DNA of 46,131 bases from an uncultured Bifidobacteriaceae bacterium (GTDB lineage Bacteria > Acidobacteriota > Vicinamibacteria > Vicinamibacterales > JAMQPK01): positions 11,054 through 57,184 of the forward strand of contig CAYHHH010000010.1 of the NCBI GenBank assembly GCA_964356125.1, written 5' to 3'. Position numbers and translations under genes: made by a program. Positions 8,305 through 34,997 of the stretch are shown piece after piece (position 1 is the stretch's first letter; each line of letters starts with the position of its first letter). The notes beneath the pieces were generated by a model. The model made no database searches, had not been told where the DNA came from, and was given only the letters and a program-made list of their open reading frames with translations.

Positions 8305-8308
8305 TAGA

Positions 8309-9774: not shown

Positions 9775-9795
9775 ACTCCGGTATACTTGCCCGAC

Positions 9796-10731: not shown

Positions 10732-10754
10732 GCGATTTTTCTTACGAGACTGAC

Positions 10755-11909: not shown

Positions 11910-11937
11910 TGACCGGCCTGCGGCCGGCGGAGTATCA

Positions 11938-13482: not shown

Positions 13483-13592
13483 TGTTCACGCTCGAAGAAT
13501 CCGCGCTCTTGAGGCGGATGATTCGGGCGATCTTCCTTGGATTGCTGGTGATCGCCGTCGTTGCCGCATACTTCCTCTTTCGTCAAGACTGA
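13482..13592 (+). CDS. Possible 36-aa single-TM peptide
   Basis: TGATG coupling to the radical SAM stop; MFTLEESALLRRMIRAIFLGLLVIAVVAAYFLFRQD has one hydrophobic helix. Confidence 0.4.
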   Translation: MFTLEESALLRRMIRAIFLGLLVIAVVAAYFLFRQD

Positions 13593-16606: not shown

Positions 16607-16654
16607 TGCCGACCTTCAGGTCGGCCGCGAGGCTGGCCTAAAGGCCAGCACTAC
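16603..16654. repeat. Inverted doublet of GTAG-type REP palindromes between convergent genes
   Basis: GTAGT-GCCGAC-CTTCAG-GTCGGC (+) and GTAGT-GCTGGC-CTTTAG-GCCAGC (-). Confidence 0.85.
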
Positions 16655-17804
16655 TTTGCGCGGCAGCAGCCGCCGCAGCCTTGCTGCGGTGCTTGCGCTT
16701 CTCGTTCGAAGCGCGCACGAGGAACTTCACGTACGGCGTCACCTGCTTCACGGCCGACACGTTCATCTGGCACGGGCTCAGGCAGCTCGGGCACTTCTTT
16801 TCCTTCACCCAGTCGCGATGCTCCTGGCTGCTCGCCTTGAAGTACACGTCCTCGGCGTCCTCGGTGAGGACGTTGCCGACGACTTCGCTGTTCTCGCAGA
16901 AGAACATGCCGCCATCAGGGTTCAGCATGATGCCCTGCGTCTGGAACGGGCACGGGCTGAGCCGGTGATAGCCGTTCGCGATCATGTCGGCGTAGTGCAT
17001 GTAGATGTAGTTCTGCCCGTCAAGCAGCGGGTCAATGCGCACCCGGTCGAGGAAGAACTGCCGCATCTGCTCTTCCTTCGGGCCGAGCGGCTTGCAGGTG
17101 TCGGACAGGTCGCCGTTGCCGAGCATCGCGTCGGTGAAGCGCACCATGTTGAACACGATGTCGAGCTTCTCGTTGCGCGCCCACGACAGGATGTTTTCCG
17201 CGTCGTCCAGGTTCTGCGAAAAGATCGTCGTCGAGATGCCGAAGTTGAAGTTGAATGTCTTCTGCAGTTCGCGCATCGCGCGGATGGTTTCGTTCGCCTT
17301 GTTGAAGCCGTTCTTCACGTGGCGCACGTCGTTGTGCATGTCGCCCACGCCGTCGATCGACACGCGCGTGCTGAAGATGACCCCCTTCTTGTTGCACAAC
17401 TCGACGATCTTCGTGAGCATCGGAATCGCGCGCTGCGGGGTCATGCCGGTCGTGTTGATGCCGAACTTGCGCAGGCGCGGCAGGCGATTCAGCATCACGT
17501 CGCACAACTCGACCAGATCGTTGCGGGTCGTCGGCTCGCCGCCTGAGACGTTGGCGGTCTCGATATTTTTCCAGAGGCCCGACGAAAACACCTTGTCGAT
17601 GTCAGCCAGCGACATCTCGTGCTTGCGATCGGCGCGCTTCCAGTTGTGGCACATCTCGCACTGCGCGTCGCACACCCAGGTGCAGTGGAAAATCAGCACC
17701 GTGGGATGGATGGGGCGCATGGTCGCGACGTAGGCGTTGACCAGATCCCGGGGAGCGCTGAGAGCAGCTTTTGCGAGGTACTTGGCGGCGTAAACCTGAG
17801 CCAT
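16638..17804 (-). CDS. Radical SAM protein with C-terminal SPASM/twitch-like Cys domain
   Basis: CDAQCEMC motif, SGGEP, SIDG; C-terminal CPF...FFCE...CPSCLSPC. Confidence 0.88.
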   Translation of the reverse strand: MAQVYAAKYLAKAALSAPRDLVNAYVATMRPIHPTVLIFHCTWVCDAQCEMCHNWKRADRKHEMSLADIDKVFSSGLWKNIETANVSGGEPTTRNDLVELCDVMLNRLPRLRKFGINTTGMTPQRAIPMLTKIVELCNKKGVIFSTRVSIDGVGDMHNDVRHVKNGFNKANETIRAMRELQKTFNFNFGISTTIFSQNLDDAENILSWARNEKLDIVFNMVRFTDAMLGNGDLSDTCKPLGPKEEQMRQFFLDRVRIDPLLDGQNYIYMHYADMIANGYHRLSPCPFQTQGIMLNPDGGMFFCENSEVVGNVLTEDAEDVYFKASSQEHRDWVKEKKCPSCLSPCQMNVSAVKQVTPYVKFLVRASNEKRKHRSKAAAAAAAQSSAGL

Positions 17805-19803: not shown

Positions 19804-20022
19804 ATGAAAAAAGCCTCAATTCTTCTCGTGATCTATTTCATCTGGATGTCGCAGGCCCAGGTCGATGCGTATCTCGACCCCGGCAGCGGCAGCATGCTGG
19901 TGCAGTTGCTGCTCGGCGGCGTCGCGGGCGCGGCGGTCATCATGAAGCTCGGGTGGGAGCGATTCAGGGACATGTTCCGCTCATCGAGCACCAAAGAGCA
20001 CGACACCAAGCCTCATGAGTGA
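19804..20022 (+). CDS. Small membrane protein with AYLDPGSGS motif
   Basis: TGgTAGAAT -10, GGAG RBS, ATG 19804; hydrophobic leader, VDA|YLDPGSGS, TM helix, basic tail; overlaps the next start. Confidence 0.75.
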   Translation: MKKASILLVIYFIWMSQAQVDAYLDPGSGSMLVQLLLGGVAGAAVIMKLGWERFRDMFRSSSTKEHDTKPHE

Positions 20023-21409
20023 CATCGCGCTCGAGCCCGGATCCTTCCGGGATCGAACGGCCAGGGTTTTCTATCACGACGGAAAAGTCTTTCGCGGCCT
20101 GAACGAAACCGCCTTCGCGGAATGGCAGGCGCTGTCGGCCACCAGCTTCTTCAAGCGTCTCTCGGGCACGGGCGCCATCGTGCCGACCCAGCAGCGCGAT
20201 CTCGCATCTATTCCCTTCTCATCGTCGGATCAACAGTGGGCCGCCGTACTCGAGCACGAAAAAGTGCCCTTCATCTCGTACCCGTACGAATGGTCGTTCG
20301 AGATGCTGAGGGACGCGGCGCTGCTGCAACTCGACCTCGTCCTCGCGGGGCTCGATGAAGGGATCGGCCTGAAGGACGCCTCGGCCTACAACCTGCAGTG
20401 GAAAGGCGTGTCGCCGGTGTTCGTCGACGTGGCGTCGTTCTACAAGCGCGCCGAAGGCGAGCCGTGGGTGGGCTACCGGCAGTTCTGTCAGATGTTCCTC
20501 TACCCGCTCCTCGTGCAGGCCTACAAGGATGTGCCGTTCCAGCCGTGGATGCGCGGCAACATCGACGGGATGGATGCCGAGGTGTGCCTCAACATGCTCA
20601 GCGCGCGCGACTACATGCGCAGCGGCGTGCTCGCGCACGTCTACCTGCAGGCCAAGGCGCAGAAAGCCTACAACGCGACGACCCGCGACGTGCGCAAGGA
20701 TTTGAGCAAGGCGGGGTTCGACAAGCGCATCATCAAGGCGAACGCACAGGGTCTACGGTCGCTCGTCGCCGGCCTGCAATGGAAGCCGAAGCAGTCGACG
20801 TGGTCCGACTACCTGAAGTGCGGCCATTACGAAGCATCCGACGCTGAGCAGAAGCGCGCGTTCGTGCGCGAGGTCGCCGCCACGCGCGACTGGAACCTGG
20901 CGTGGGACGTCGGCTGCAACGTCGGAGTCTTCTCTCGCATCATCGCGGAGCGGGCGAAGAATGTCGTCGCCATGGACTTCGATCACCAGGCAATCGACAA
21001 GCTCTACCAGGCCCTCAAGACCGAAAAGCTGACGAACATCCTGCCGCTCATCCTCAACGTCACCGATCCGTCGCCCAATCTCGGCTGGCGGAACATGGAG
21101 CGCAAACGCATCGACGAACGCGGCCGCCCGGATCTCGTCCTGACGCTGGCGCTCATCCACCATGTCGTCATTGGTGGGAACATTCCGATGGCCGAGTTCG
21201 TTCAGTGGCTGCGCGATTTGGGCGGCGAGCTGGTGGTCGAGTTCGTGACGCGCAAAGATCCGATGGTCGTCACGCTGCTGCGCAACAAAGACGATCACTA
21301 CGCGGATTACAACGAAGACGTGTTCGAGCGCGAGCTCGCGGCGCGGTTCCGGATTGTGAAGCGGCAGCCGCTCGGCTCAGGGACGCGCATCATGTACCAC
21401 GCCCAATAA
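20015..21409 (+). CDS. NoeA-like two-domain protein: kinase-like N-terminus plus class I SAM methyltransferase
   Basis: PGSFRD, SYPYEW, LKDASAYN, FVDVASF, WVGYRQFC; C-terminal WDVGCNVG and LALIHH. Resembles the rhizobial NoeA family from memory. Confidence 0.72.
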   Translation: MSDIALEPGSFRDRTARVFYHDGKVFRGLNETAFAEWQALSATSFFKRLSGTGAIVPTQQRDLASIPFSSSDQQWAAVLEHEKVPFISYPYEWSFEMLRDAALLQLDLVLAGLDEGIGLKDASAYNLQWKGVSPVFVDVASFYKRAEGEPWVGYRQFCQMFLYPLLVQAYKDVPFQPWMRGNIDGMDAEVCLNMLSARDYMRSGVLAHVYLQAKAQKAYNATTRDVRKDLSKAGFDKRIIKANAQGLRSLVAGLQWKPKQSTWSDYLKCGHYEASDAEQKRAFVREVAATRDWNLAWDVGCNVGVFSRIIAERAKNVVAMDFDHQAIDKLYQALKTEKLTNILPLILNVTDPSPNLGWRNMERKRIDERGRPDLVLTLALIHHVVIGGNIPMAEFVQWLRDLGGELVVEFVTRKDPMVVTLLRNKDDHYADYNEDVFERELAARFRIVKRQPLGSGTRIMYHAQ

Positions 21410-22679
21410 TCACGAGCTCGTCATAGCCGCTGAGGTCGATGCTGTCCCCTGCTGAGACCTTCAGGTGTTTCACGATCTTCCCTGTCGCCAGTTCCCTGAT
21501 TTCGATCGCGGCGTTCACGTGCGCGCGGACCGACACCGGCTGCTTGATTCCGATCGCGAGCGCGACGAAATCCGATCCGTTGGACGCCGAGTACAAGCGG
21601 TCAAACCCCTGAATCGGCGCACCAGGTGAATTCGGTTCATGGCGCGTCCAGTTCGCGAGTCCCGGCGGCAAGTACTTCTTCGCCTCGCCGAGCGCTGTCG
21701 CGATGGTTTTGAACGACGGCAGCTCATCGAAGTGCGCGTGCCGTCCAAGCTTCGGCGCAATGTCGGCCGCGCCGCCGCCGCGAATTCCCGGGCCCGAGTG
21801 CAGCACGTAGCTGGCGTTCCCCGCGAGAAACGTCATGACGTAGCCCGCCGCAATTCGAGACGCCGAGTCGTCTTGCCGCACGGAGCTCTCAGGCCCGATC
21901 GGCTCGTTGTTGAAGATAATCGCCGGCAGCTGTCCGCGGCACGCGCGATCGTACGCGGCGGGAAAGCTCCACGGGCGTCGCAGCGGCTGCAGCGGACCGA
22001 TCTTAATGCTCGCGGGGCCCCACCCGCGCTCGTAGTGGAGCGTCATCGCGTCGACGCCCGAGCCCGCATATGTGGCGCACGCCATTCCATTCCTCGGCGA
22101 GCTGAGCGCGACCAGGACGCTCGTCCTGCCGTTCAACCGCGCGCCGAGCCGCCGCAATTCCGTGAGCCCTTCAGGACCGCTGAAACCGTTCTGCCATGCT
22201 TCGTTGGCAATCTCGAACGCGAAGAGCTTGTGCTCACGCCCCTTCGCGAGGGAGGCGAAGCGATCGACGAGCGCGTCGCGCCCGGTGCCGGCCGGAGTGA
22301 AGGGCGCCCCGCCGAAAATCGTCCACTGCACGCGCAGGCCGTACCGGTCGTACGCCAGGTCTGTCATCCCGGCGATAATGGCGTCATAATCTGGCCATCG
22401 CGGATCGGTCTGTCTGTCTTCCCAGCTCGCGCCGCCAACCGACCCGAGCACGCGCACGTAATCGATGCCCGCGGCGCTCAAGATCTCGAGATTGCGCTCG
22501 AGCCTGGCACGGTCGAACTTGTAAGCCCACGCGCCCCAGAACAACGTGGCGCCAAGCGCGTTGAAGGGGCCGGCTGCGTCTGCGACCGCACGCCCCTCGG
22601 CTCGCACCAGGCCCGTGCGTGCCTCGAGGGGTGAGGCGAGCGTCATAAGACCGATAAGTAGGACAGATACGTATTTCAT
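21390..22679 (-). CDS. Secreted TIM-barrel glycoside-hydrolase-like protein (clan GH-A-like)
   Basis: Signal peptide MKYVSVLL...PLEA from ATG 22679; DYVRV, FEIANE (acid/base-like), TLHY, NNEP. Confidence 0.6.
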   Translation of the reverse strand: MKYVSVLLIGLMTLASPLEARTGLVRAEGRAVADAAGPFNALGATLFWGAWAYKFDRARLERNLEILSAAGIDYVRVLGSVGGASWEDRQTDPRWPDYDAIIAGMTDLAYDRYGLRVQWTIFGGAPFTPAGTGRDALVDRFASLAKGREHKLFAFEIANEAWQNGFSGPEGLTELRRLGARLNGRTSVLVALSSPRNGMACATYAGSGVDAMTLHYERGWGPASIKIGPLQPLRRPWSFPAAYDRACRGQLPAIIFNNEPIGPESSVRQDDSASRIAAGYVMTFLAGNASYVLHSGPGIRGGGAADIAPKLGRHAHFDELPSFKTIATALGEAKKYLPPGLANWTRHEPNSPGAPIQGFDRLYSASNGSDFVALAIGIKQPVSVRAHVNAAIEIRELATGKIVKHLKVSAGDSIDLSGYDELVIIGRGT

Positions 22680-23670
22680 GCGCCTTCTCTCGAATACCAC
22701 GTTTTTGATCGCGTTACTAGTCACCGCCCCCGGCTGCGGTGGAAAGAACCCTAATCCCCTGCCGCCGCCCCCACCTGGGCCGCAGCTCGCGCTCTCATGC
22801 CCGACGGCGATGACGCGTGAAGCGACCAGCCCGCAAGGGACCGACGTCCATTTCGATACGCCTGCACCCACGGGCGGACGCGAGCCGTACAGCGTTCAGT
22901 GCAATCCGGGATCGAGCGGTGTGTTTGCCATCGGTGAGACAACGGTGAGCTGCACCGCGACCGACGTGGACATGGCGCAGGCGTCCTGTGGCTTTGCCGT
23001 GACCGTCCGCGCCTCGCAGACGGTTGCGAAGACGACGTTCACAGCGTTCGGCGACAGCATTACCGACGGCAAGGTGTCTTTGGAGCCGCTGATTTCCCTC
23101 GCCGGCCCCGACACGTACCCATTCAAGCTTGAACAGATGCTTCGCGAGCGGTACCCGTCGCAGAGTTTTCTTGTCAGCAACCAGGGCAACAGTGGTGAGC
23201 ATCTCGGCGACGGCGCCATACGGCTGCCCTCCGTGCTCGCTGCAGAGAAGCCAGAAGTAGTTCTCATTCTAGAAGGCGTCAATGCCGGATGGTTTCGATC
23301 AACCACCTTGCAGGCAGCGAATGTGCGAACCATGCTCACTGCCGCCCGGGAGCAGGGTGTTGCCGTCATCATCGCAACCGTCATGCCGGTACGAGCGGAG
23401 CAATTTCCCAGCCGCCCCGAGTGGAATCCGCGCATAGTCGCGCTCAACGTGCGCATTAAACAGCTGGCCGCTGAGTTCGATGTCGCGCCGGTTGTCGACC
23501 TCTATGCGCTATTTGCCTCCAACATGCACTTGATAGGTATCGATGGCCTGCATCCCACTGCAGAAGGTCAGACGGAAATCGCACAAGCCTTCAGAGACGA
23601 AATCGTGCGGCGTTACGACAACCGGTCGACGATGTCGTTTGGGTTGTCTACGATGAGACGCGCGCGATGA
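22678..23670 (+). CDS. Lipoprotein with HYR domain and SGNH/GDSL hydrolase
   Basis: Lipobox APGC, poly-Pro tether, SGVFAIGETTVSCTATD (HYR), FGDSIT / EGVN / DGLHP (SGNH blocks). Confidence 0.88.
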   Translation: MRLLSNTTFLIALLVTAPGCGGKNPNPLPPPPPGPQLALSCPTAMTREATSPQGTDVHFDTPAPTGGREPYSVQCNPGSSGVFAIGETTVSCTATDVDMAQASCGFAVTVRASQTVAKTTFTAFGDSITDGKVSLEPLISLAGPDTYPFKLEQMLRERYPSQSFLVSNQGNSGEHLGDGAIRLPSVLAAEKPEVVLILEGVNAGWFRSTTLQAANVRTMLTAAREQGVAVIIATVMPVRAEQFPSRPEWNPRIVALNVRIKQLAAEFDVAPVVDLYALFASNMHLIGIDGLHPTAEGQTEIAQAFRDEIVRRYDNRSTMSFGLSTMRRAR

Positions 23671-25733
23671 GAAAGGGTTGGGCACGCCGCTTCAGAGATC
23701 TCATCGCCCCTGCCCTGCTCGTCGTTCTGCCGCTCTGCCTGTTCGGCCCCTACACGATCTTTTCCGGTAACGAGGCGGAGTTCAGTGCGCCGTTCCGCGA
23801 GATCGTTCGTCCGCTGCTCCTTGCTGGTGCGGGCATCGCGCTTGCGGTGATCGTTCTTGGGCTCGCGCTTCGCGGCAAGGTCTTCCGCGCGTACGTCGCG
23901 CTGCTGTTCGGGCTCGGCATCGTCATCTGGATCCAGGGCAATCTGCTGGTCGCCGACTACGGCCCGCTCGACGGGACGGCGATCGACTTCACGCTGCAGT
24001 CATGGCGCAATCCATATGAAATAGCGATGTGGACGCTCGTGCCCCTGTTGTGTGTCGTCGCCGCGAAATACGTCTTTTCCATCGCGCCCTTTGCGAGCGC
24101 GGTGCTCGTCACGCTGCAGATGGCGATGTTGATCGTGTCGGCCTTCGGCGCGGACGGGCGCGCGACACCAGAATGGAAAGGGCCCGCCGCCTCGATGTTC
24201 GAGCTGTCGCGCAAGCAGAACATCATCCACATCGTGCTCGACGCGTTTCAATCGGACTTGTTCGGCGAGATCCTGAACGAGGACCGCCAGGAGCTCGACC
24301 AGAGCTTCTCAGGCGCGGTGTTGTTCGCCGATCACGCGGGCGCATTCCCGACGACGATGGTGAGCATTCCGGCGATGCTCACGGGAACGGTGTACCGCCA
24401 CGAGCGGCCACTGCCCCGTTACGTGCGCGAGCATTTCGACAAGGGATCGCTCTTCAAGTCGCTGCGCGCCAACGGCTACCGCGTCGATAACATCTCCGAC
24501 ATTGTCTACGACACCAGATCGGCATCGAACGTCTACAGAACGCGGCGTCCGTACATCGGGTACGGGGAGTACGTTCAATTTGCGGGCTGGCAGCTCGCCG
24601 ATTTGTCGGCGTTCCGGCATGCCCCTCACATCCTCAGGCCTGCCATCTACAACGACCAGGCGTGGCGTCTTCAGACGCGGCTCGGTCCCGGCGATACCGC
24701 AGGGCGGCGGCACTTGCCCGTCAGCGGCTCGGCCGTTCTCCTCGAGCTCTCACAGCGATTGATCACAACGGTCGACGAGCCGGTCTACAAATTCATTCAC
24801 GTCGGCATTCCGCACCGCCCCGTGACGCTGACTGCGGAGTGCGAATACGTCGAAGGGATGTCGCGCGCGCGCGAGTACTACAAGGGGCAGACGCGATGTG
24901 CCGTGCGGCGCGTCGTTGCGCTCCTGGATCGGTTACGAGAGCTTGGCGTGTACGACAGCTCGCTCATCGTCATCACGTCCGATCATGGAATCGGATACGC
25001 GCCGTTGAATTTCGTGAACGACCGGCAGACCCCCGCAGGCGCACTATCGATTGTCGCGGGAAAGTCGAAAGCCCTGCTCATCGTGAAGGCGCCTGGCAGT
25101 CGCGGCCCGGTGCGGGTGTCGAACGCGCCAACGACGATCAGCGACGTCGCCGCAACGGTACTCGACGCCGCTGGCGCACCGCGCTCGCTGCCGGGCGAGC
25201 CGGCATTGAAGCTTGCGGAAAGCGCGCAGCGCGTCCGCGGCTTCGGCATGTACGACTGGGAGGATGACGGCTGGAAACAGCCGTATTTCGACGCGCTGGA
25301 CGTGCTGGAGCTTCGCGGACCGGCGGTTGACGGAAACAGTTGGACGTTGGTCGATAGCCTCTATCCGCCCGACGCCGGCGACACCAATCGCACGCGCGGC
25401 GTACACGCGGTGCAGCGAAGCCGCTCGGGGTTCGTGTATCGCTGGAGCAGCCCGCACGGGTTCTTTCACGCGCCCCCACAGGCACGCCGGTTCGAGATCG
25501 CGATTCGATCGATCGCACCCAAACCACAGACGGTCACGTTCGTGGCCGCCGGTCGCGTACTGAACACCATCACGCTCAGCGATCAGGCATGGGTGACGGT
25601 GCAGGGGGTGCTGCCGCCTCCGCCCACGCCGGCCACGAACTGGCTCGAGCTCCACGTCGATCTGCCCTGGCGGCCCCGCGGTGAAGCGCGCCTGCTCGGC
25701 GTTCAGACGCGCGACCTCAAGTTCGGCCCCTGA
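23667..25733 (+). CDS. Membrane-anchored alkaline-phosphatase/sulfatase-superfamily protein (LtaS/EptA-like phospho-form transferase architecture)
   Basis: About 5 N-terminal TMs; NIIHIVLDAF, FPTTMVS (Thr nucleophile position), FIHVGIPH, ITSDHG. Confidence 0.8.
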   Translation: MRKGWARRFRDLIAPALLVVLPLCLFGPYTIFSGNEAEFSAPFREIVRPLLLAGAGIALAVIVLGLALRGKVFRAYVALLFGLGIVIWIQGNLLVADYGPLDGTAIDFTLQSWRNPYEIAMWTLVPLLCVVAAKYVFSIAPFASAVLVTLQMAMLIVSAFGADGRATPEWKGPAASMFELSRKQNIIHIVLDAFQSDLFGEILNEDRQELDQSFSGAVLFADHAGAFPTTMVSIPAMLTGTVYRHERPLPRYVREHFDKGSLFKSLRANGYRVDNISDIVYDTRSASNVYRTRRPYIGYGEYVQFAGWQLADLSAFRHAPHILRPAIYNDQAWRLQTRLGPGDTAGRRHLPVSGSAVLLELSQRLITTVDEPVYKFIHVGIPHRPVTLTAECEYVEGMSRAREYYKGQTRCAVRRVVALLDRLRELGVYDSSLIVITSDHGIGYAPLNFVNDRQTPAGALSIVAGKSKALLIVKAPGSRGPVRVSNAPTTISDVAATVLDAAGAPRSLPGEPALKLAESAQRVRGFGMYDWEDDGWKQPYFDALDVLELRGPAVDGNSWTLVDSLYPPDAGDTNRTRGVHAVQRSRSGFVYRWSSPHGFFHAPPQARRFEIAIRSIAPKPQTVTFVAAGRVLNTITLSDQAWVTVQGVLPPPPTPATNWLELHVDLPWRPRGEARLLGVQTRDLKFGP

Positions 25734-25741
25734 ACCTTGGT

Positions 25742-26491
25742 ATGATTGCCGCGTTGAATCCCGAAGCGACACGAGAGGTCGCCGCCCGGCCGGCGCCCGG
25801 CGTGGTCCCTGGCACGGGCGAGCGCGAGCTCAAGTTCACCCTGCCCGCGAGCCGCGCCCATCTCGCCCGGCGGCGGCTCGAAAGCCTCTGCCGCCGCGAT
25901 CCGGAGTTTCCGGCCGCCGTCGTCTGGACGATGTACTACGACACGCCGGCGCTGTCTTCACTCGGGGAGAAGATCAACAGCGACTATCTCAAGCGGAAAA
26001 TCCGCGTGCGCTGGTATTCCGATCTCGAGGGACGCGTCTCCGGCCCGGCATTCGTCGAAGCCAAGCTGCGCCTCGGCACGCAGCGCTCGAAAGTGCGCGC
26101 GCGCCTTCCCTATCCGGCCGAAGACATCGCACAGTGGGATTTGCAGGACCCGCGGTTGCTCACCGCGCCGCTGCTGCTGCGCGACCAGGGTGTGCTGGGA
26201 CACGCCTCGTGGCAGCCGATGCTGCTGCTGCGCTATCGCCGCGATCGGTTCGTCGAGCCGCTCACCCGTTCGCGCGTGAGCCTCGACGCCGATATTGCCG
26301 GCGCGGCGGCAAACCCGCGGTTTCTCTCGGCGCCCAATCTCTCGCCGTTGGCAACGGCTGTGCTCGAGGTGAAGGGAACCGGTGACGAATGGCCCGCCGC
26401 GCTCCGCCCGCTTCTCGCGCTGGGCATGCACAAGGCGTCGTTCTCGAAGTTCCTGGTGGTCTACGCGCATATGACGCGCTGGGTGTTGTAG
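25742..26491 (+). CDS. VTC / CYTH-like (polyphosphate polymerase domain) protein
   Basis: RELKF, MYYDT, KRKIRVRWY, FVEAK, YRRDRF, RVSLD, VLEVK and FSKF motifs; start may be TTG 25754. Confidence 0.85.
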   Translation: MIAALNPEATREVAARPAPGVVPGTGERELKFTLPASRAHLARRRLESLCRRDPEFPAAVVWTMYYDTPALSSLGEKINSDYLKRKIRVRWYSDLEGRVSGPAFVEAKLRLGTQRSKVRARLPYPAEDIAQWDLQDPRLLTAPLLLRDQGVLGHASWQPMLLLRYRRDRFVEPLTRSRVSLDADIAGAAANPRFLSAPNLSPLATAVLEVKGTGDEWPAALRPLLALGMHKASFSKFLVVYAHMTRWVL

Positions 26492-26492
26492 T

Positions 26493-26544
26493 TTGGTTGG
26501 TGGATGGTGGTTCGTGGTTGGTAGGGTCCGCCTTTAGGCGGACC
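26493..26544. repeat. GTGGTTG-type heptamer x4 followed by a GTAG-REP palindrome
   Basis: GTAGG-GTCCGC-CTTTAG-GCGGAC at 26521-26543. Confidence 0.8.
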
Positions 26545-26555
26545 GTGGACAAATA

Positions 26556-27254
26556 ATGCAGCAACAACTGGACAATCTCTTCGGAGCGCTCACGCAGGGA
26601 ACCGGCCCGCAGGTCACGCCGCTGGCGTTCCTGCTGTTGATGGCGGTGTCGCTGCTGTCATCGATGTTCATCGCGTACCTCTACGTGCACTTCTATTCGA
26701 ACCGGGCGACCGGCAGCCAGGTGCACCGCGCCTTTCCGCTGCTCGGCATTTCCATCACGGCGATTTTCGTCACGATCCAGTTTTCACTGCCGCTCTCGCT
26801 CGGTCTGCTGGGCGCGTTGTCTATTGTCCGCTTCAGGACGCCCATCAAAGAGCCCGAGGAGATCGGGTTCATCATGCTCGTCATCTCCACGTCGATCGCG
26901 GTGGCGACGTTCAAGCTGTCGTTCGTCGGGATCATCTTCGTTGTCGCCCTCGTCGCGCTGTTCGGACAGGCACTGATGCGGCGATTAACCGGCGCGGAGT
27001 CCGACGGCACGATCGTGATTTCGCTCCCCACGAGCGGCAAATCGGCCGATCCCGCCGCGATTACCGCGCTGTTGCGCAAGCGGCTTCCCAAGGCCAAGCT
27101 CGAGAGCGTCTCTCAAACGGATCGCGAGACCGTCGTGTCCTATAACTTCCAGGGGATTTCTGACACGGCGTTGACGGGACTGCAGTCAGAGCTGAACGCG
27201 GCGGTCGGACCCTCCACGTATAACGTCTTCCTCAACAGACCGGGCGCGTTGTAG
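26556..27254 (+). CDS. DUF4956 family membrane protein
   Basis: LSLGLLGALSIVRFRTPIKEPEE signature; C-terminal soluble domain. Confidence 0.88.
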   Translation: MQQQLDNLFGALTQGTGPQVTPLAFLLLMAVSLLSSMFIAYLYVHFYSNRATGSQVHRAFPLLGISITAIFVTIQFSLPLSLGLLGALSIVRFRTPIKEPEEIGFIMLVISTSIAVATFKLSFVGIIFVVALVALFGQALMRRLTGAESDGTIVISLPTSGKSADPAAITALLRKRLPKAKLESVSQTDRETVVSYNFQGISDTALTGLQSELNAAVGPSTYNVFLNRPGAL

Positions 27255-29495
27255 ATGCCCGCAGCACGGCGCATCCCCTCGTGGCTGCTCATCGTCGCGA
27301 CGGCGGCAATCTGCGTGGGGACTCTCAAGCTGGAATCGGCCGACCTCTTTCCGCTCTGGCGGTTCGCGGTCCAGTGGAGTCCCGAAGCGCTGCCGAGCTC
27401 GCGCGCCGTGCCGGCCAACGAAATCGCGAGCGGCGTGCCCGTTCTCTCCCTCACCCTGAGCGATGTCGACCTGAACGATCCGGCGAAAGGGCTGCTGTCC
27501 AACAAGCGCGAGCACGGCGAAGAATGGGAGCGCGAAGGCAGCGTGTCGTACTACGAGGCCGGCACGCTCCGCTTCGCGTCTGGCGTCGGCGTCCGCATTC
27601 ATGGCGGGGGCAGCCGCATCACGGCACCGCGTCCGGGATTCAGGCTCTACTTCCGGCGGAAGTACGGCCCGCGGGAGGTACCGCCGGGCGTGTTCTTCAG
27701 TCCTGCCGCACAGCCGGTCCGCCGCATCGTGATTCATGACGACGTGCGGCGCGACGGGAAGATCGACTGGTATTTCGCGAACCCGCTGGCCTACGACATC
27801 GCGCGTGCCATCGGCGCCATTGCGCCGGAGACGAAGCCCGTGCGTTTCTTTCTGAACGGCGAGTATTACGGTCCGTTCGTGGTCACCGAGCGCTTCGACG
27901 AGCGATTCTTTGCGGCACATTGGGGCTACGACGACATCCTGCTCAGCCAGGCAGAAATGAACACGCTGTGGGACTGGGTCAAGACGACCCGCCCACTGAC
28001 GATGGCGAATGTGTCGCGGGATGTGAATATCGAGAACCTGACGCGATGGTTTCTTGCGGTGGCGTTCACGGCAACCAGAGACGCGTATCAGGGCCCCGGC
28101 CAGTTTCTCGACCGCACGAAGACGACCGGTGAATGGTTCTGGGTCAACTGGGACATGGACCAGAGCTTCCGCGACTGGAACCTCGACAGTTATCAATACT
28201 TGCTGGAGCGGGTCGCTGAAGACCGCCGCGGCCGCAACCCCGCAGAACCGCGCTCGGTGATTCTGTCGCAGCTCATGGCGGAAGATCCGCAGTACCGCGA
28301 CTATCTCAAGCGCGCTGTGCAGAAGGCGCTGAATCATCAGCTGACGCAGGCGTTCCTGATGGAGCGATACGAGCACTATCTGACCACTTCGATGGAGCTG
28401 CAGGTGAAGCGCCTGGATTACCTCCCGCGTCTCCGTCAGTTTCTCGAGCGGCGCCGCGCGTTCTTCAGACTGACCAGCGAGCAGTGGTTGAATACGACAC
28501 CGAGCCAGCGCGTGGCCATCGTCGCGCCGGCCAATGTCGATGTCCTTGTCGAAGGCGAACGCGTCAAGGGCGGCTACGACGGGCTGTATTTCCCAGACAT
28601 CGAGCTGACGGCCGATATTCCCGCAGATCAACGCCAGGGCTTTACCGGCTGGAGCGTCAACGGCAGTCTCGTTCCCGGCGTCGCGCCGCTGAAGTTCAAG
28701 GCTGACCGCGATACGCAGATCGAAGCCGTGTTCAACAACAACGTCAGCACTCGCGGCGGCTCGGCTGCGCCGGTCTCTCCGACAGCCGCCCCAGCATCGG
28801 CCGCGCGCGCGGTCTGGAAAGCCATACCAGCCGGCGAATCGTGGATGGGCTGCGTGCCGAGCGACGATCGCTGCGAGGAGGCGGAGAACCCCCGCGTACG
28901 CAGCTCGTTCGCACAACCGTTCGAGATGCTCGATCGGGAAGTGTCGGTGGACGATTTCCGCGCATTCGCGGCAGCCACTTCGCGCCGGATGCCGCGGCAG
29001 CCAGAGTGGTATGCCGACGGCACGCACCCGGCCGTCAACGTGACGTGGACCGAAGCCACGGCGTATTGTGAGTGGGCCGGCGGCCGGTTGCCGACGGAAG
29101 CCGAGTGGGAACACGCCGCGCGCGGCGGGCTCGATGGAAACATATTTCCATGGGGCGACGAGTTCACGGGTCAGGCCAACGGTCGGCATCATCTCAAGGC
29201 CGAACAATTCGATTTCACCGTGCCTGTCGCGACGTTCCCCCCGAATGCGTTCGGCCTGTACGACATGGCCGGCAACGTGTGGGAATGGACGGCAAGCGCC
29301 TTCACGTTGACGCACGCATCGGAGCCCTCTGCCGGCGGCTACGACCTGCGCACGATCAAGGGCGGCGGGTGGGATAACCTGGTTTCACGCCTCCGCGTCT
29401 CCGAACGCGCGGCGTTATCGAGCTCCGGCCGGCACAACCTGTACGTCGGCTTCCGATGCGTTCGCGAAAAAGGGGACGGGAGTCTTTTTCGGTAA
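27255..29495 (+). CDS. CotH-kinase-like protein fused to a C-terminal FGE-sulfatase (SUMF1-like) domain
   Basis: GVRIHGGGSR, FLNGEYYG and WDMDQSF (CotH); RLPTEAEWEHAARGG, PNAFGLYDMAGNVWEW and GFRC (FGE-like); N-terminal signal or TM. Confidence 0.85.
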   Translation: MPAARRIPSWLLIVATAAICVGTLKLESADLFPLWRFAVQWSPEALPSSRAVPANEIASGVPVLSLTLSDVDLNDPAKGLLSNKREHGEEWEREGSVSYYEAGTLRFASGVGVRIHGGGSRITAPRPGFRLYFRRKYGPREVPPGVFFSPAAQPVRRIVIHDDVRRDGKIDWYFANPLAYDIARAIGAIAPETKPVRFFLNGEYYGPFVVTERFDERFFAAHWGYDDILLSQAEMNTLWDWVKTTRPLTMANVSRDVNIENLTRWFLAVAFTATRDAYQGPGQFLDRTKTTGEWFWVNWDMDQSFRDWNLDSYQYLLERVAEDRRGRNPAEPRSVILSQLMAEDPQYRDYLKRAVQKALNHQLTQAFLMERYEHYLTTSMELQVKRLDYLPRLRQFLERRRAFFRLTSEQWLNTTPSQRVAIVAPANVDVLVEGERVKGGYDGLYFPDIELTADIPADQRQGFTGWSVNGSLVPGVAPLKFKADRDTQIEAVFNNNVSTRGGSAAPVSPTAAPASAARAVWKAIPAGESWMGCVPSDDRCEEAENPRVRSSFAQPFEMLDREVSVDDFRAFAAATSRRMPRQPEWYADGTHPAVNVTWTEATAYCEWAGGRLPTEAEWEHAARGGLDGNIFPWGDEFTGQANGRHHLKAEQFDFTVPVATFPPNAFGLYDMAGNVWEWTASAFTLTHASEPSAGGYDLRTIKGGGWDNLVSRLRVSERAALSSSGRHNLYVGFRCVREKGDGSLFR

Positions 29496-29528
29496 TGTCT
29501 GCGAAAAAGACTCCCGTCCCCTTTTTCG
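29465..29528. repeat. Palindromic element copy 2 (27-bp perfect IR, 10-nt loop) spanning a stop/start junction
   Basis: CGAAAAAGGGGACGGGAGTCTTTTTCG (29465-29491) and reverse complement (29502-29528); the loop contains TAATG. Confidence 0.95.
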
Positions 29529-31615
29529 TGCCCATCGGCGCCGCGACCGTCGCGGGCGTCGCGCTCTGGCTGAGCCGCGCGTCGTTCGACGTCGCCGGCA
29601 CCACGCAGGCGCCCATACGTGTGGCGATGCTGCCGTCGCTCGCGGAGCTCATGGGTTTCGTGGCGCTGGCTCTGCTCATCGTGGCCGGCATGGCGGCGGC
29701 CATCCGGGGCAGCCGCGCCTTCTGGGAACCGGCGACTGACATACTGCTTCCGCTCTTGTCGCTGTCGCTTCTCATCCTGCCCTACTTGCCGTGGGTCGCG
29801 GATTGGATACCGGCGCTGCAGCTCTTCGCTGGGCCAGGACGCATTGTGATTTGGATAGTCGTCGCCGGACAGGTGTTGTGGCTGTTTCTTCCCCAACTGT
29901 CACGTCACATCGGCGTGCATGCACCGATCGTCGGCCGCTCAAAAGGCGCCGCGCTGTTTGCCATCGTCGCTGTCGCTTTGAGCGCGCCGTTCGTGCTCAA
30001 CGCGCGCGCATTGCCTTCTGCATTTGTGGATTTGTTCAACTCAGTCAGGGCGCTCTCGTCGGCCACGCTGTCAACGGTGCCGGCGGGCGCGCTCGGCGTA
30101 TTGTTCGATCAGGAGTACGGCGTCGTCTCGTACGCGCCGGTGTTGCTGCTTGGTTTCATCGGCCTCGTTGGCATGCTTCGCGACCGGTCGCATCGACGCC
30201 TCGCCGTCGTATTGAGCGCGGCTTCACTCCTGCTGATCGCGATTCCGGCAACCGTCGATCCGTGGTGGGCCAAGTCAATGATGCCGGGGCGCCCAGTTGT
30301 GCTCCTGCTGCCCGTGCTCATCGTGCCTATCGCATGGCTGTATGCGCGCCTCGAGCCCGACTCACCCGCGCGTGCGGGCGCGCAGGCGCTGCTGCTGCTC
30401 AGTGTCGCCGTGACATTGACGCTCGTGGTCTTTAATCCCCGCGTTCCGGCACTGCAGGAAGGCGATGGCTCGTCGTCGCTGCTTCAGTGGATGTCTCCCA
30501 CGTGGCAATTGTGGCGCGAGGCCCCGACGTTTGTGGCGGGTGCGTCGCGCGCGTCTTCAATACGTCTGCTGTTATGGCTGACCGCTTTCGGCATCGTTTA
30601 CTGGATGCTCGCGCGGCGATCGGCGCTGGCGAACGGCCGGGCGGCGCTTGCCACGACACTGAGCGGAGCGATCGTGTGCGTCGCGGTCGCCACCATCAGC
30701 GCTGCGGTTGTGCCGGACGCGGCGAGGCCGTTCGAAGCCGAGGGACGCGTGATGTTTCCTTTGCTCGAGACCTTCGATCCGATCGCGCGTCCGAACGCGC
30801 TCCGCTTCGACGAACTGTCTCTCGTCGAGCCTGGTGAGCTGCCGCCGCTGTTCGTCGCCTCTGCGGTGCCTGGACAGCGGACCGATCGGCAGCCCGTTCG
30901 TGTGGTGTTGAACGCGCGGTTCCGTTTGCCGGCGGGCCGTTATGTGCTCGATCTGAAAGGATCAGAGGCCGCCGGCTCGATGCCGGCGGCCTCGATGTCG
31001 CTGCAACTTGGCCGCGAAGGCCGGCCGGTCGAAAGCTGGCCGCTGGCCGTGCGCCCGGGTGAGCACAGTCAACACGAGTTCGACGTACCTCTCGATGCCG
31101 AATTCGTCGGGTTCCGCGCGACCAGGCAGGCCGAGCAGGCGATCGCTGAGCTTCGTATCAGCGCCCGCACTATCGTCGAGACGCGCAAACGATTCCCCGC
31201 GGGGACGGTCCTTTCGGCGGCGGCCTTTCCCCCGGCGCGCATCTTCTTTCACGACAGTTCGGCGTACCCCGAAGCCGGGGGATTCTGGGTGAGAGGCCGT
31301 ACGACAGTGCGGATGACGCTATTGAAGGTGAGGGAAAGCGATCCTGCCGTGCTGCTCGCCATTCACAGTGGCGCGCGCCCGAACGTGGTAACGCTCGCGG
31401 CGCCAGGCTGGTCGCAGAAGCTCGAACTGGTGCCAGGCGTCACGCAGCGGGTCATGGTGCCGTCCAACGTTGGCGAGCGGTTCATTCCGCTGACGATCTC
31501 GAGCGCCGATGGATTCGTTCCGGCAGACGTCGAACAGAGACGCGATCGCCGGCTCTTGGGCGCATGGATCGCGTTTATCCCCGACGATATCGCCAGAACG
31601 TCCGCAGCCCCCTGA
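29495..31615 (+). CDS. Multi-TM membrane protein with extracytoplasmic C-terminal domain, GT-C-related
   Basis: ATG 29495 overlaps the upstream TAA; many TMs; [13 protein letters not shown] and WW...PGR motifs. Confidence 0.65.
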
Positions 31616-32276: not shown

Positions 32277-33043
32277 CGCCGCTCCAGCTCGCGCAGGTAC
32301 GCCTCGAGACGCCGGCGATCGTCGGGCGTGTTGATGCCGACGGCTTCCAGATCGTTTGTCGCGGGACACGTCAACACCGAATGCCCACGCTGCACCAGCC
32401 ACGGGAGAAACGGCAGAAAATTTCTCTCGCGCGTCGCAGCCGCCTGGATCGCCTCGCTGCTGAACGTCGGCAGCAGGTTGAAGTACGCATCCGGCGAGAG
32501 CGAGAACAGACCCATATCGCTTTCGCCCACCTCAGGCATGTCGTCACCCTCACGCCGCTCACGGATGGCCGCGATCCGTCCGGACATGTCGCGCTCAAAG
32601 TGAATGTACGGTGGCGCCTGGCGCGAGGTGGGAAAGATGGCGGACGCATCCGTACGCTCCTGAGACAACCGGCGCAGAGTGGAAATCGTGTCCGGATGCA
32701 CCCCGATTTGATCGCACCACGTAATCCAGACACGCGAGGCGGCGCGCTGATGGACAGCATCCGACGCAAGCAGAATCGCATCGAGCATGCCCGTCGGCTC
32801 AGGCTGCTGCGCGTACTGCACGTCGAGCGCGGGTGCCATCTGCTCCACGTGCCGTCTCACTTGCGCTTCGAACGACGGATGCACGACCAGCACGACGCGC
32901 TGCACGGCGTGCCGGTAGCGATCGAACAAGTGATCGATCATCGCCCTGCCGTTGACCGGTGCGAGAACCTTCGGTGTGGTACTTTGAAGACGGGTGCCGG
33001 CGCCTGCGGCCGGGATGATTAAAACCGTGTCAGGAGTTAGCAC
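32273..33043 (-). CDS. Nucleotidyltransferase (GlmU-N / MobA-like NTP transferase fold)
   Basis: [10 protein letters not shown]...PKVL, QPEPTG, WCDQ, GINTPDD. Confidence 0.85.
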
Positions 33044-34997
33044 GCGGTGAGACTTTCAAATCGGCAGACGCCGGCGCCGTCGGAGCGGCCGCTTTCGGCC
33101 GCATGAGGCGCTGCCACGCGATGAGGGCGAGGGAGCGCAAGCCTTCAAGCGGCGTAGTACGGCGCACGCGCTCCGGCGACAGCGGCAGGAACTGTACCGG
33201 GGTCTCGATCACGTCTGCTCTCTCCGCGAGCAGTGCCGACAGGAGATATTGATTGGCCAGCTTGTCGTCGGGCGCCACAGGCAGGCTCGTCAGGAACGAC
33301 GCGCGAACGCCGCGCACGCCCGACAGCGTGTCGGAGATGTAGCGCCCGAATAAGAGGAGGTACGTCGCGCTGAGCAGGTGGCTTCCGAGCAGGCTCATCG
33401 AGCCAAGCACGGCATTATGCTTGTACCGCAACCGATACGACGTCTCGATATCCTTCAGTGAAAAGCGGCGGCTGCCCCACACTGCATCGAGCCGCGCGCT
33501 CATCATCGGCGAAAGGATGCCCACCAGATCCTCCGCGCGATACATTCCGGATGATTCGAAGAGGACCGCATAATCGAACTCGGCGTCGGCCAGCGCGCGC
33601 ACGAACGCCTTGCCGGGCGGCTCTGTCGCGCCGCGAAGATTGCGCAGGCCGAACGGCAGTGGCTGCATGAACACGTCGTCGAGATCGGCGTCCGCGGTGT
33701 AGAAGACGGTGACGTCGACAGCGAGATCTTGGATCCCACCGCGCAGCATTTCGAGCACCGACTGGCTCAGCTTGTTCAGCGACGCGGCGTCGTACAGCCA
33801 CACGGCGATGCGCTGGCGTCGCCGTTGCGACAGAAACGACTGCAGAAACGGCGTGAGCACCTTCGAGGCATCGTGCCGTCCGCTGACGCCATCCTCGTAA
33901 TGCCCGATGCGCACCAGGCGCGGGTCTTCGAGTGTTTCAAGATGTCCGAGCGGCACGTAGCCGGCATCGGCGTCGGTTTCGAGAATCTGCGGATCGTTGA
34001 TGATGTAATGCGTGATCAGCGTCGGCACGGGAAGCGGCAGCTTCCCCTTCTCTTTCAAGTAGTAGACGGCGCGCTCGACGATGTCGACCGCCGTGCTGCC
34101 GGAAATTTCCGAGTCGGCCTGAATGTTGGTGACGAGCAGCTTGATGGCCGTCAGGTTCGACGCAATCGCCCGGCTGAGGTCTTTGGTCAGGTACGACGGA
34201 AACAGGCTCGAGTGCTGGGTGCCCGGCGCGTAGATGATGAGATCGGCCGCCGCGAGGCGCTCGCGCAGCCGCGGGTTCAAGGGCATCGGCCGCGACCGCT
34301 GTTCCAGCCACGCCGCGCACTGCTCTTGCGACAGACAGCCGAGCGCCGCACGGTCGGCTTCGGACAGCGGCGCATCGATCAGGAACACATCAGAGATGCG
34401 GTTCTGCCGTTTCGCGTCGACAATTTCAGCCTCGCTCACGAGCACGCCGCGATCGCGCTCCAGCGCCACGAGAAACGCGTTCGTGCCGTCGGTCACATTG
34501 TCGATGAGCCCCGGCGTCAACCCGAGGAGCCCGCAGTAGTCGTCGACCGCGTCGTTGAACCGCCGGCCGCGGTGCAGGTAGCAGCCGGCAAACACTAGAT
34601 TACCGATCGCGCAATCGGAAAACTCGAACGGGCGTCCCGTCGCGAGCTCGCGTGTCACCGCGTCGATCCGCTGCCGCATTTGAGGCCCGCCCGCGATTGC
34701 CACCCCTTCGAGCGCCTGCAGCGCCTCTTCGCGGGAACAGGGAACCGGAAGGCGCGTGTCGAACACCTCGACGAGGGCTGTGGGGCACGACTTGGTCTCG
34801 CGCGCGACGCGCGAGGCGTTCTTGCGGAAATCAGACGGGCCGAGGCTGTCGCCGAGAAAGCGCCGCACTTCTCCCGTCGACGCCCCATCGTCGTAGCCGT
34901 TGATGGCGATCGTGAGCGCCACATCGGGATGCCCGATGAGCTGGCGCGACAGCACGTCGGAACCGCGCCCGCCCGAAAAGAGCACTACGCTGACCAC
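33030..34997 (-). CDS. CofD/YvcK (UPF0052)-like protein fused to a degenerate GT2-like C-terminal domain
   Basis: FSGGRG, YDDGASTG, GPSDFRK, IGNL and IYAPGTQHSSL (CofD/YvcK pattern); C-terminal VWGSR, ISDTLSG and ETPVQF (GT2 pattern). Confidence 0.78.
   Translation of the reverse strand: MVSVVLFSGGRGSDVLSRQLIGHPDVALTIAINGYDDGASTGEVRRFLGDSLGPSDFRKNASRVARETKSCPTALVEVFDTRLPVPCSREEALQALEGVAIAGGPQMRQRIDAVTRELATGRPFEFSDCAIGNLVFAGCYLHRGRRFNDAVDDYCGLLGLTPGLIDNVTDGTNAFLVALERDRGVLVSEAEIVDAKRQNRISDVFLIDAPLSEADRAALGCLSQEQCAAWLEQRSRPMPLNPRLRERLAAADLIIYAPGTQHSSLFPSYLTKDLSRAIASNLTAIKLLVTNIQADSEISGSTAVDIVERAVYYLKEKGKLPLPVPTLITHYIINDPQILETDADAGYVPLGHLETLEDPRLVRIGHYEDGVSGRHDASKVLTPFLQSFLSQRRRQRIAVWLYDAASLNKLSQSVLEMLRGGIQDLAVDVTVFYTADADLDDVFMQPLPFGLRNLRGATEPPGKAFVRALADAEFDYAVLFESSGMYRAEDLVGILSPMMSARLDAVWGSRRFSLKDIETSYRLRYKHNAVLGSMSLLGSHLLSATYLLLFGRYISDTLSGVRGVRASFLTSLPVAPDDKLANQYLLSALLAERADVIETPVQFLPLSPERVRRTTPLEGLRSLALIAWQRLMRPKAAAPTAPASADLKVSPRANS

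Follow-up and report, generated by a model that had tools for sequence, protein, structure and literature searches.

Genes for a VTC-domain protein, a DUF4956 membrane protein, and a CotH kinase are already in print as companions of polysaccharide loci, and here we analyze such a cassette in a 46,131-nucleotide stretch of acidobacterial DNA (contig CAYHHH010000010.1, positions 11,054 to 57,184; hereafter, the window). In the accessible part of Whitfield 2020 (PMC7112168), cotH, a poly-phosphate polymerase gene, DUF4956, and DUF4832 lie side by side as accessory genes of the pel loci of streptococci, clostridia, and bifidobacteria. For the Streptococcus intermedius genes SIR_1592-1594, the accessible text describes a VTC protein modelled as Vtc4-like with its catalytic residues (PMC12345266; bioRxiv 10.1101/2024.04.20.589940) and an ACT-domain membrane protein likened to MgtC (PMC12345266); according to the authors, they were unable to find the three genes together outside pel operons (PMC12345266). 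The NELoc-2 locus of Clostridium perfringens also lists VTC and CotH genes. Full-text literature searches turned up no paper in which a function of the VTC-DUF4956-CotH set had been tested. This agrees with an initial annotation of the window, which held that the three genes often co-occur with no demonstrated function, and with what the accessible parts of PMC7112168 and PMC12345266 say. The cassette itself is known in the form of accessory genes of Gram-positive pel loci. The host of the window is a soil or freshwater acidobacterium whose closest relatives are metagenome-assembled genomes (MAGs) labelled Vicinamibacterales (Acidobacteriota).

Linkage of VTC, DUF4956, and CotH genes

The window contains four co-oriented, closely spaced open reading frames (ORFs) on the plus strand, at 23667-25733 (688 amino acids), 25742-26491 (249), 26556-27254 (232), and 27255-29495 (746), as the initial annotation had reported. 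Its family assignments were also confirmed by Pfam: Sulfatase (E 1e-14), VTC (1.8e-18), DUF4956 (6e-14), and CotH (2.3e-24). The last three genes make up the cassette, which is composed of the following parts.

25742-26491, plus strand: cytoplasmic Vtc4-like VTC-domain triphosphate-tunnel enzyme (Pfam VTC, E 1.8e-18; profile, model, and residues)
26556-27254, plus strand: MgtC-like DUF4956 membrane protein, five helices followed by a C-terminal ferredoxin/ACT-like domain (Pfam DUF4956, E 6e-14; model)
27255-28814, plus strand: signal-anchored CotH kinase-fold domain and small beta-rich linker domain, the first 520 residues of 746 (Pfam CotH, E 2.3e-24)
28815-29495, plus strand: C-terminal fusion to CotH, an FGE-sulfatase-like (C-type-lectin-like) domain that is no formylglycine-generating enzyme (Pfam FGE-sulfatase, E 4.4e-51)

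To judge from its distribution, the VTC-DUF4956-CotH cassette is very probably a functional unit. We fetched 80 loci from species-representative genomes by means of a VTC alignment, so that they were chosen by likeness to the window VTC protein. Where 900 bp or more of downstream sequence was available (77 loci), a same-strand DUF4956 gene adjoins VTC in 75. Of the 71 loci that extend at least 2.5 kb downstream, all contain CotH, and in 69 it is encoded downstream of VTC on the same strand. Besides Acidobacteriota, cassette loci carry the labels Spirochaetota, Desulfobacterota, Verrucomicrobiota, Planctomycetota, Gammaproteobacteria, and others.

We also searched an unselected sample, 200 other genomes of the phylum (several of them fragmented), with the three Pfam families and compared the positions of the matches by eye. 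The numbers of genomes with a match were 14 for VTC, 21 for DUF4956, and 20 for CotH, the unpublished genome G152 entering the CotH count only. Thirteen of the 14 VTC genomes carry DUF4956 and 12 of the 14 carry CotH. Around the 15 VTC loci of the sample, DUF4956 was present within 3.5 kb in 12, CotH within 5 kb in 10, and both in nine; the order of the genes differs among lineages. Among 14 control genomes, VTC and DUF4956 matched in the same three, and CotH in those three and in Bacillus subtilis; Bacteroides thetaiotaomicron and Corynebacterium glutamicum match all three families. The wide co-occurrence that the initial annotation described is therefore found in the selected loci (75/77 and 69/71) as well as in the unselected genomes (13/14 and 12/14), and the linkage of the three genes is far beyond chance.

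Glycosyltransferases accompany the cassette, as the gene-neighbourhood check proposed in the initial annotation revealed: genes of glycosyltransferase families occur within 7 kb in 41 of the 80 loci. By lineage, GT2, GT4, or PMT_2 neighbours were present within this distance in 21 of 26 Vicinamibacterales loci, 7 of 10 from other Acidobacteriota, 5 of 11 from Desulfobacterota, 5 of 10 from Spirochaetota, and none of 6 from Verrucomicrobiota. These numbers are undercounts, because only neighbour families present in at least three loci were named. GT2 alone accounts for 59 ORFs in 30 loci, against about 0.09 expected per 18 kb (calculated from the 25 GT2 matches in the 4.8-Mb host genome).

Some loci depart from the simple arrangement. 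In some Desulfobacterota, two tandem DUF4956 genes stand between VTC and CotH, and one locus has two VTC-DUF4956 pairs (doubled genes: L080, 9235-10801; L081, 10697-12264; L041, 2751-4106 and 11592-12951). In the MAG loci L014, L027, L038, L047, L074, and L029, the cassette genes are broken into many short ORFs or, in L029, fused across frames, which most likely reflects assembly frameshifts rather than decay. The apparent VTC-DUF4956 fusion ORF of L029 was accordingly rejected as a frameshift artefact.

Folds, residues, and topology of the cassette proteins

The VTC protein consists of a single Pfam domain (67.4 bits against a cut-off of 23) in 249 amino acids and has no hydrophobic segment. 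Neither an SPX domain nor a C-terminal membrane part was detected by Pfam or by the hydrophobic-segment scan, and a hydrophobic segment is present in none of 73 VTC ORFs of the related loci. A single-sequence search of solved structures gave no match. Matches appeared only with a profile of 123 homologues, collected by a search of representative genomes, which recovered yeast Vtc4 (3G3Q, E 1.3e-11), Vtc2 (1.2e-5), and the E. coli triphosphatase YgiF (0.035). Consistently, the top Foldseek matches of the AlphaFold model (pLDDT 91.4) were structures of Vtc4 (3G3R, E 4e-12, TM 0.61; range for Vtc4 structures, 4e-12 to 3e-11), with YgiF/CYTH enzymes at 3e-9. The assignment to the fold was judged by a closed eight-stranded beta-tunnel and a Pfam match above the cut-off, and the protein has both.

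Twelve positions of the VTC protein are invariant in the 123 sequences (E29, R88, R90, E106, K108, K117, R167, R169, D182, E209, K211, and K236), and Y165, R178, and S235 are nearly so. Counted from a HMMER alignment with chain 8i6v_E, R88, R90, K108, K117, Y165, and R167 correspond to R264, R266, K281, K294, Y359, and R361 of Vtc4, and R178, E209, K211, S235, and K236 correspond to R373, E426, K428, S457, and K458. The last of these is the catalytic Lys of Vtc4 according to the accessible part of PMC4641920. By this comparison, the tunnel residues that bind triphosphate and metal 1, as well as the catalytic Lys, are retained. K31 would match K200 of Vtc4, a position outside the alignment.

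DUF4956 is the most conserved of the three cassette proteins, its best 120 database matches being 82-96% identical. Residues 50-107, which include NRATGSQVHR and SIVRFRTPIKEPEE, hardly vary between Acidobacteriota, Spirochaetota, Verrucomicrobiota, and Gammaproteobacteria. In the model (pLDDT 74), helices span residues 22-47, 56-73, 78-91, 100-117, and 121-145, and a beta-alpha-beta-beta-alpha-beta C-domain follows; DUF4956 ORFs of the related loci mostly have four or five hydrophobic segments. By the positive-inside rule, both conserved basic loops and the C-domain would face the cytoplasm. Searches of solved structures with the DUF4956 sequence gave chance matches only (E >= 0.45), and Foldseek returned nothing for the model at E <= 0.001. 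A wide structure search produced matches confined to the C-terminal ferredoxin-like domain, including domain V of EF-G (Z 9.2) and the C-domain of MgtC (Z 7.6), the latter standing among many ferredoxin-like folds. The window protein itself has no MgtC match at E <= 0.01; two paralogues reach 22.3 and 27.8 bits against the Pfam MgtC cut-off of 31.4. A complex prediction for VTC and DUF4956 at 1:1 scored 0.00 in two runs made without controls and is not evidence either way.

The CotH protein scores 86.9 bits against a Pfam cut-off of 23.8 and has one hydrophobic segment, at residues 6-26, which forms an N-terminal signal anchor. An N-terminal hydrophobic segment is also found in 61 of 75 CotH ORFs of at least 380 amino acids from the related loci. 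A profile of 38 cassette CotH proteins matched B. cereus CotH (5JD9) at E 1.4e-19. In the alignment, the invariant D276 falls on B. cereus D224, and W299-D300 fall on W246-D247; W299 is invariant and D300 is kept in at least 90% of the 38 sequences. The 23-residue spacing of D224 and D247 equals that of D228 and D251 in B. subtilis CotH, and mutation of the latter inactivates the kinase, as stated in the accessible part of PMC7821199. By alignment, then, the window CotH has kept both the catalytic and the metal-binding Asp.

The initial annotation was right about the CotH domain of this protein and missed a stronger match at its C terminus, an FGE-sulfatase domain (residues 524-737, 174 bits) that aligns with human formylglycine-generating enzyme (FGE) at E 1e-27. 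We take the catalytic cysteines of human FGE to be C336 and C341. Neither is present when the domain is compared with the wild-type human chain: the first falls in a gap ("mch") and the second ("rsyc") is aligned to Val. Relatives of the domain include PvdO and PorK/GldK, members of the fold that are not FGEs. We therefore read it as a probable binding module rather than a maturing enzyme. FGE-like domains, either fused or in a neighbouring ORF, were found in 28 of the 80 loci by a single-seed search. A role for this domain as maturase of the sulfatase-fold protein encoded upstream was considered and rejected, since that protein has Thr and lacks a CxPxR motif, and the FGE-like domain has no catalytic Cys.

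Candidate mechanisms for the cassette

The genome of the host contains further copies of cassette genes. A second trio lies on the minus strand of another contig (C32:18000-37697), with VTC at 13234-13977, DUF4956 at 12570-13241, and CotH at 10847-12625, and after it come genes for a Porin_O_P-family protein (9648-10850), an OmpR-type response regulator (8941-9687), and a HAMP/HisKA histidine kinase (7736-8944). Relatives of its VTC protein were found in three short loci of a metagenome scan and, at E <= 1e-25, in 1 of the 200 other genomes of the phylum. A third CotH gene (C1:60000-78000, at 8151-9329) directly follows another Porin_O_P gene (6951-8141), and an alkaline phosphatase gene (11208-12542) stands on the other strand about 2 kb downstream. 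Two of the three Porin_O_P matches in the genome thus adjoin CotH genes, which suggests that CotH is tied to a phosphate species that crosses the outer membrane. The genome also has PPK2 and a PPK1-like match, and bulk polyphosphate therefore does not require the VTC enzyme. On a further contig, a third DUF4956/MgtC-like protein of 276 amino acids is encoded beside a PLD-like protein with a weak PP_kinase_C match (C17:42000-53827, at 7345-9107, minus strand).

We tentatively propose, as a reading that could well prove wrong, that the VTC protein makes polyphosphate, that DUF4956 acts as its conduit, and that the outward-facing CotH kinase uses it to phosphorylate a surface glycan or glycoprotein. 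The cytoplasmic Vtc4-like enzyme would turn nucleoside triphosphate into a phosphoanhydride product, most likely a polyphosphate chain. This product would be handed to the five-helix DUF4956, whose near-invariant basic loops (R50, R58, R92, R94, and K98) and ferredoxin-like domain would form a cytoplasmic docking and entry site. On the periplasmic side, the product would be the phosphoryl donor of signal-anchored CotH, the acceptor being a glycan or glycoprotein assembled by the neighbouring glycosyltransferases, and the non-catalytic FGE-like domain would serve as a binding module. The other three products of the operon, a GDSL lipoprotein, a Thr-type LtaS-like transferase, and a polytopic membrane protein, would be lineage-specific additions that decorate the same polymer.

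Kinase-fold enzymes that act on glycans outside the cytosol are known from animals: the xylose kinase Fam20B and the mannose kinase POMK work in the secretory pathway, using ATP imported into the lumen. By analogy, CotH may resemble them in acting on glycans. To our knowledge the bacterial periplasm does not hold ATP, which is why we propose a donor other than ATP for CotH. Export of polyphosphate to a kinase had been suggested in the initial annotation, and part of that suggestion stands: the topology fits, with no hydrophobic segment in 73 VTC ORFs, DUF4956 integral to the membrane, and an N-terminal segment in 61 of 75 CotH ORFs. For export through DUF4956, the yeast complex gave no support, DUF4956 having no detectable relation to the membrane part of yeast VTC. 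The gene set, its linkage, the folds, the conserved catalytic residues, and the topology were observed directly, but the mechanism is kept tentative because the chemistry at the acidic patch of the VTC protein is ambiguous and because we infer the VTC product, any conduction by DUF4956, and what CotH uses as donor and acceptor. Slightly more doubtful is a version in which the cassette is a split bacterial form of the VTC machine, a soluble Vtc4-like polymerase sitting on an MgtC-like DUF4956 oligomer and threading polyphosphate across the inner membrane, where it would supply energy and phosphate to exported CotH kinases that phosphorylate surface glycans.

A number of observations weigh against the polyphosphate-donor mechanism, and some of them speak for other readings. 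The first strand of the VTC protein holds the ExExK motif of tunnel enzymes (E27-R-E29-L-K31), with E29 invariant in the 123 sequences. According to the accessible part of Martinez 2015 (PMC4641920), the ExExK glutamates belong to a four-Glu acidic patch that binds a second, catalytic metal in hydrolytic tunnel enzymes, whereas Vtc4p has basic residues in place of this patch. At +2 after the metal-1 Glu, the window protein has the basic K211, like K428 of Vtc4, where hydrolytic tunnel enzymes have Glu. Of the three positions mapped, two are therefore acidic and one basic, and the protein looks like a hybrid at the acidic patch; because the ExExK glutamates are kept, a hydrolase or other tunnel chemistry has to be reckoned with. 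The VTC protein might then be a hydrolytic or signalling tunnel enzyme, a tripolyphosphatase or nucleoside triphosphatase, that together with the MgtC-like DUF4956 regulates or energises CotH or the glycan machinery, CotH drawing its phosphate from elsewhere, for example from ATP before export or from a lipid-linked donor. We consider this unlikely. It would account for the retained glutamates, and YgiF is the sole solved tunnel-enzyme chain that aligned with the N-terminal strand, at a non-significant E of 1.2, the N-terminal profile not having aligned to Vtc4. The sub-cut-off MgtC matches of the DUF4956 paralogues and the MgtC-like C-domain fit it as well, given that MgtC exerts regulation through binding to other membrane proteins, according to the summary in the accessible part of the S. 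intermedius paper (PMC12345266). So does the existence of DUF4956 and CotH genes within 3-6 kb of each other with no VTC match (G086:C147:14921-18668 and G168:C6:273312-279713). However, both the profile (1.3e-11 versus 0.035) and Foldseek (4e-12 versus 3e-9) place the protein clearly nearer to Vtc4 than to YgiF/CYTH, K211 is basic where hydrolases carry the fourth acidic residue, and strict linkage to an exported enzyme in a set of three genes is hardly what a regulator would require.

The donor mechanism must also accommodate the 8 of 20 CotH genomes and the eight DUF4956 genomes of the 200-genome sample that lack VTC, and the fact that the 80 loci, selected by VTC likeness and with 26 of them carrying one order label (Vicinamibacterales), are not independent. 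The membrane part of DUF4956 has no convincing structural partner, no VTC channel chain is among the 50 matches listed for the protein, and neither sequence nor fold comparison detected kinship with the membrane channel of yeast VTC. We found no protein in which VTC and DUF4956 are fused, and a search for longer VTC forms, itself a weak one, came up blank. In S. intermedius, single-gene deletions left Pel and aggregation largely intact under the conditions tested, as far as the accessible part of the preprint goes (bioRxiv 10.1101/2024.04.20.589940). Polyphosphate could instead be the end product, made by VTC and DUF4956, moved by them across the inner membrane, and then released or fixed at the surface, with CotH priming, capping, or anchoring the chain on a glycan or protein instead of drawing on it for simple phosphorylation. 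We give this a small chance. The linkage, folds, and topology speak for it just as they do for the donor mechanism, and so does the adjacency of CotH and porin genes, with the second trio directly before one Porin_O_P gene, the third CotH directly after another, and two of the three Porin_O_P matches next to CotH. The B. cereus group has extracellular polyphosphate that does not depend on PPK, although the accessible part of PMC13484657 reports no VTC4 homologue there. Set against this, there is no porin or TolC-type gene in the window operon and none among the neighbour families present in at least 3 of the 80 loci, the kinase-type catalytic set of CotH is complete, and the ExExK glutamates count here as well. 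The same porin genes could also point to phosphate acquisition or homeostasis (a Pho-type response), the placement in a glycan locus being secondary: the second trio stands beside a gene of a phosphate-selective porin family and an OmpR-type regulator with a histidine kinase, and the third CotH lies between a Porin_O_P gene and the alkaline phosphatase gene. We find this quite improbable, because genes for glycosyltransferases, methyltransferases, and epimerases surround the window operon and its 18 closest relatives, several phyla share the glycosyltransferase neighbours, no Pho-type gene is present among the Pfam matches of the window ORFs, and the published set accompanies pel polysaccharide operons in the accessible parts of PMC7112168 and PMC12345266.

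We know of no settled explanation for extracytoplasmic phosphorylation in bacteria, where ATP is not known to be available. If true, the use of polyphosphate as donor would be a new envelope energy route and would define a new class of glycan modification. A split VTC machine would explain phosphorylation in an ATP-free compartment and imply an ancestral transport role for MgtC-like proteins. If polyphosphate is the product, the cassette would be one candidate route to extracellular polyphosphate in the bacteria that carry it. The cassette is widespread, with VTC present in 14 of 200 sampled Acidobacteriota genomes and loci in several other phyla.

The window operon and its relation to known systems

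The initial annotation described a module of four genes. The four genes are real, but the operon is larger and adds an upstream GDSL lipoprotein gene and a downstream gene for a polytopic membrane protein. Beyond the cassette, its features are the following.

22678-23670, plus strand: GDSL-family esterase/acyltransferase with an HYR-like domain, probable lipoprotein (Pfam Lipase_GDSL_2, E 1.9e-22; HYR, E 7.8e-5)
23667-25733, plus strand: membrane-anchored sulfatase-fold (alkaline-phosphatase superfamily) transferase of LtaS/EptA type, Thr at the nucleophile position (Pfam Sulfatase, E 1e-14)
26525-26544, plus strand: GC-rich hairpin with an 8-bp stem and a 4-nucleotide loop in the VTC-DUF4956 spacer (sequence read and folded)
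29495-31615, plus strand: polytopic membrane protein, about 12 hydrophobic segments and a C-terminal soluble part (no family match)

The GDSL stop and the start of the sulfatase-fold gene overlap as ATGA, 8 nucleotides separate the sulfatase-fold gene from VTC and 64 separate VTC from DUF4956, the DUF4956 TAG abuts the CotH ATG without a spacer, and the CotH stop overlaps the ATG of the downstream membrane-protein gene as TAATG. Opposite-strand genes border the group on both sides. From these tight or overlapping junctions and the flanking genes, we conclude that the operon comprises six genes, at about 22678-31615. When folded as a whole, the 75 nucleotides around the spacer hairpin were unexceptional (z -1.24). 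One RNA library contained two short exact contigs (26525-26780 and 29202-29383), which are no proof of transcription since such libraries can contain DNA. The first of them starts at 26525, the first stem base of the hairpin; contigs cannot show RNA ends, and the coincidence may be due to chance.

The accessory genes are less constant than the cassette. The GDSL ORF is listed from 22546, its likely start being the ATG at 22678 (sequence from M45: MRLLSNTTFLIALLVTAPGC), and a relative was found in 29 of the 80 loci. In the sulfatase-fold protein, the Pfam match spans residues 184-504 over the full profile length and is preceded by five hydrophobic segments before residue 165. Its FPTTMVSIP aligns, in a weakly aligned stretch, with C-x-P-S-R of phosphonate monoester hydrolase, with T for Cys and I for Arg, and no CxPxR motif is present in the protein. 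The LtaS/EptA type with a Thr nucleophile, as initially proposed, is thus upheld within the limits of that stretch. The protein scores 18.3 bits with NCBIfam LtaS (cut-off 970) and lies far below every NCBIfam equivalog cut-off. Twelve of the 80 loci have the gene, in each case immediately 5' of VTC, and all 12 are among the 18 loci in which the polytopic membrane protein is encoded directly 3' of CotH; being absent from 6 of these 18 sister operons, it is a variable part, dispensable to the cassette. The polytopic protein itself has 14 overlapping hydrophobic windows and no Pfam or NCBIfam match. In a protein atlas, the nearest family-bearing clusters were PMT_2, Glyco_transf_22, and PMT at a sub-threshold 0.76-0.78, and as a lead only, it is possibly a divergent GT-C-type transferase.

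The setting inside a glycosylation locus, claimed by the initial annotation, was also seen. Around the operon, the window encodes GT1/GT4 and GT2 glycosyltransferases, methyltransferases, an epimerase, two radical-SAM proteins, a CofD-like protein, and a nucleotidyltransferase; past about 38 kb, housekeeping genes begin. The 655-amino acid protein at 33030-34997 (minus strand) combines a CofD/YvcK-like domain (a sub-cut-off match to the GAK-system CofD-like family) with a part that weakly matches an AglJ-type glycosyltransferase, and its gene adjoins GT2 and MobA-like nucleotidyltransferase genes. Of the radical-SAM proteins inside the glycan locus, one is B12-binding (11938-13482) and the other of SPASM type (16638-17804), and both types recur near the cassette in related loci, in four loci each. 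Just upstream of the operon, ORFs 20015-21409 (plus strand, 464 amino acids; sub-threshold methyltransferase matches only) and 21390-22871 (minus strand, 493 amino acids; no family match) apparently correspond to two neighbour families, each of which recurs in 16 of the 80 loci.

What the window adds to the published record is a non-pel context in a bacterium encoding outer-membrane porins, the fusion of CotH with an FGE-like domain, presumably a binding module, along with added envelope enzymes, and, through the porin-linked sister copy in the same genome, a link to phosphate-selective porins.

Several of the operon proteins can be set beside described systems. DUF4956 shares with the MgtC family a five-helix membrane part and a small ferredoxin/ACT-like cytoplasmic domain, the weak Pfam matches of its paralogues and the C-domain match (Z 7.6) pointing the same way; unlike MgtC, it has its own near-invariant motifs, and the window protein gives no MgtC match at E <= 0.01. 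The sulfatase-fold protein resembles LtaS/EptA/OpgB-type phosphotransferases in its N-terminal membrane domain, outward sulfatase-fold domain, and Thr at the nucleophile position, but differs from the curated members in falling far below the NCBIfam equivalog cut-offs and in being absent from a third of the sister operons (6/18). We do not know the host lineage to form spores. No spore-coat-protein context for CotH was seen among the window ORFs, and the N-terminal signal anchor, too, is unlike a mother-cell coat-protein kinase. With the Bacillus CotH Ser kinase (5JD9/5JDA; Nguyen 2016 as cited in the accessible part of PMC7821199), the window CotH shares the kinase-like fold family and both catalytic Asp residues; unlike the spore-coat enzyme, it is signal-anchored, faces outward, and has extra C-terminal domains, and its substrate is, from the context, perhaps a glycan.

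The likeness to the yeast VTC complex (3G3Q, 3G3R, 7YTJ, 8I6V) lies in the tunnel fold, the aligned residues, and the genetic tie between a cytoplasmic enzyme and a membrane protein. The window enzyme differs from it in having no SPX or transmembrane part and in keeping the ExExK glutamates, and its partner DUF4956 has no detected channel likeness. With the pel accessory set, as presented in the accessible parts of PMC7112168 and PMC12345266, the window has in common the three families, their tight linkage, and their place at a polysaccharide locus, with a CotH predicted to be exported and to have its catalytic residues, a VTC protein predicted to be cytoplasmic, and a membrane protein with an ACT-like C-domain. 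It differs in that no Pel-named family and no DUF4832 is present among the Pfam matches of the 45 window ORFs and that the host is an acidobacterium encoding outer-membrane porins. The genes also stand in the order VTC-DUF4956-CotH, the kinase is fused to an FGE-like domain, and the operon includes extra genes for GDSL, LtaS-like, and polytopic membrane proteins.

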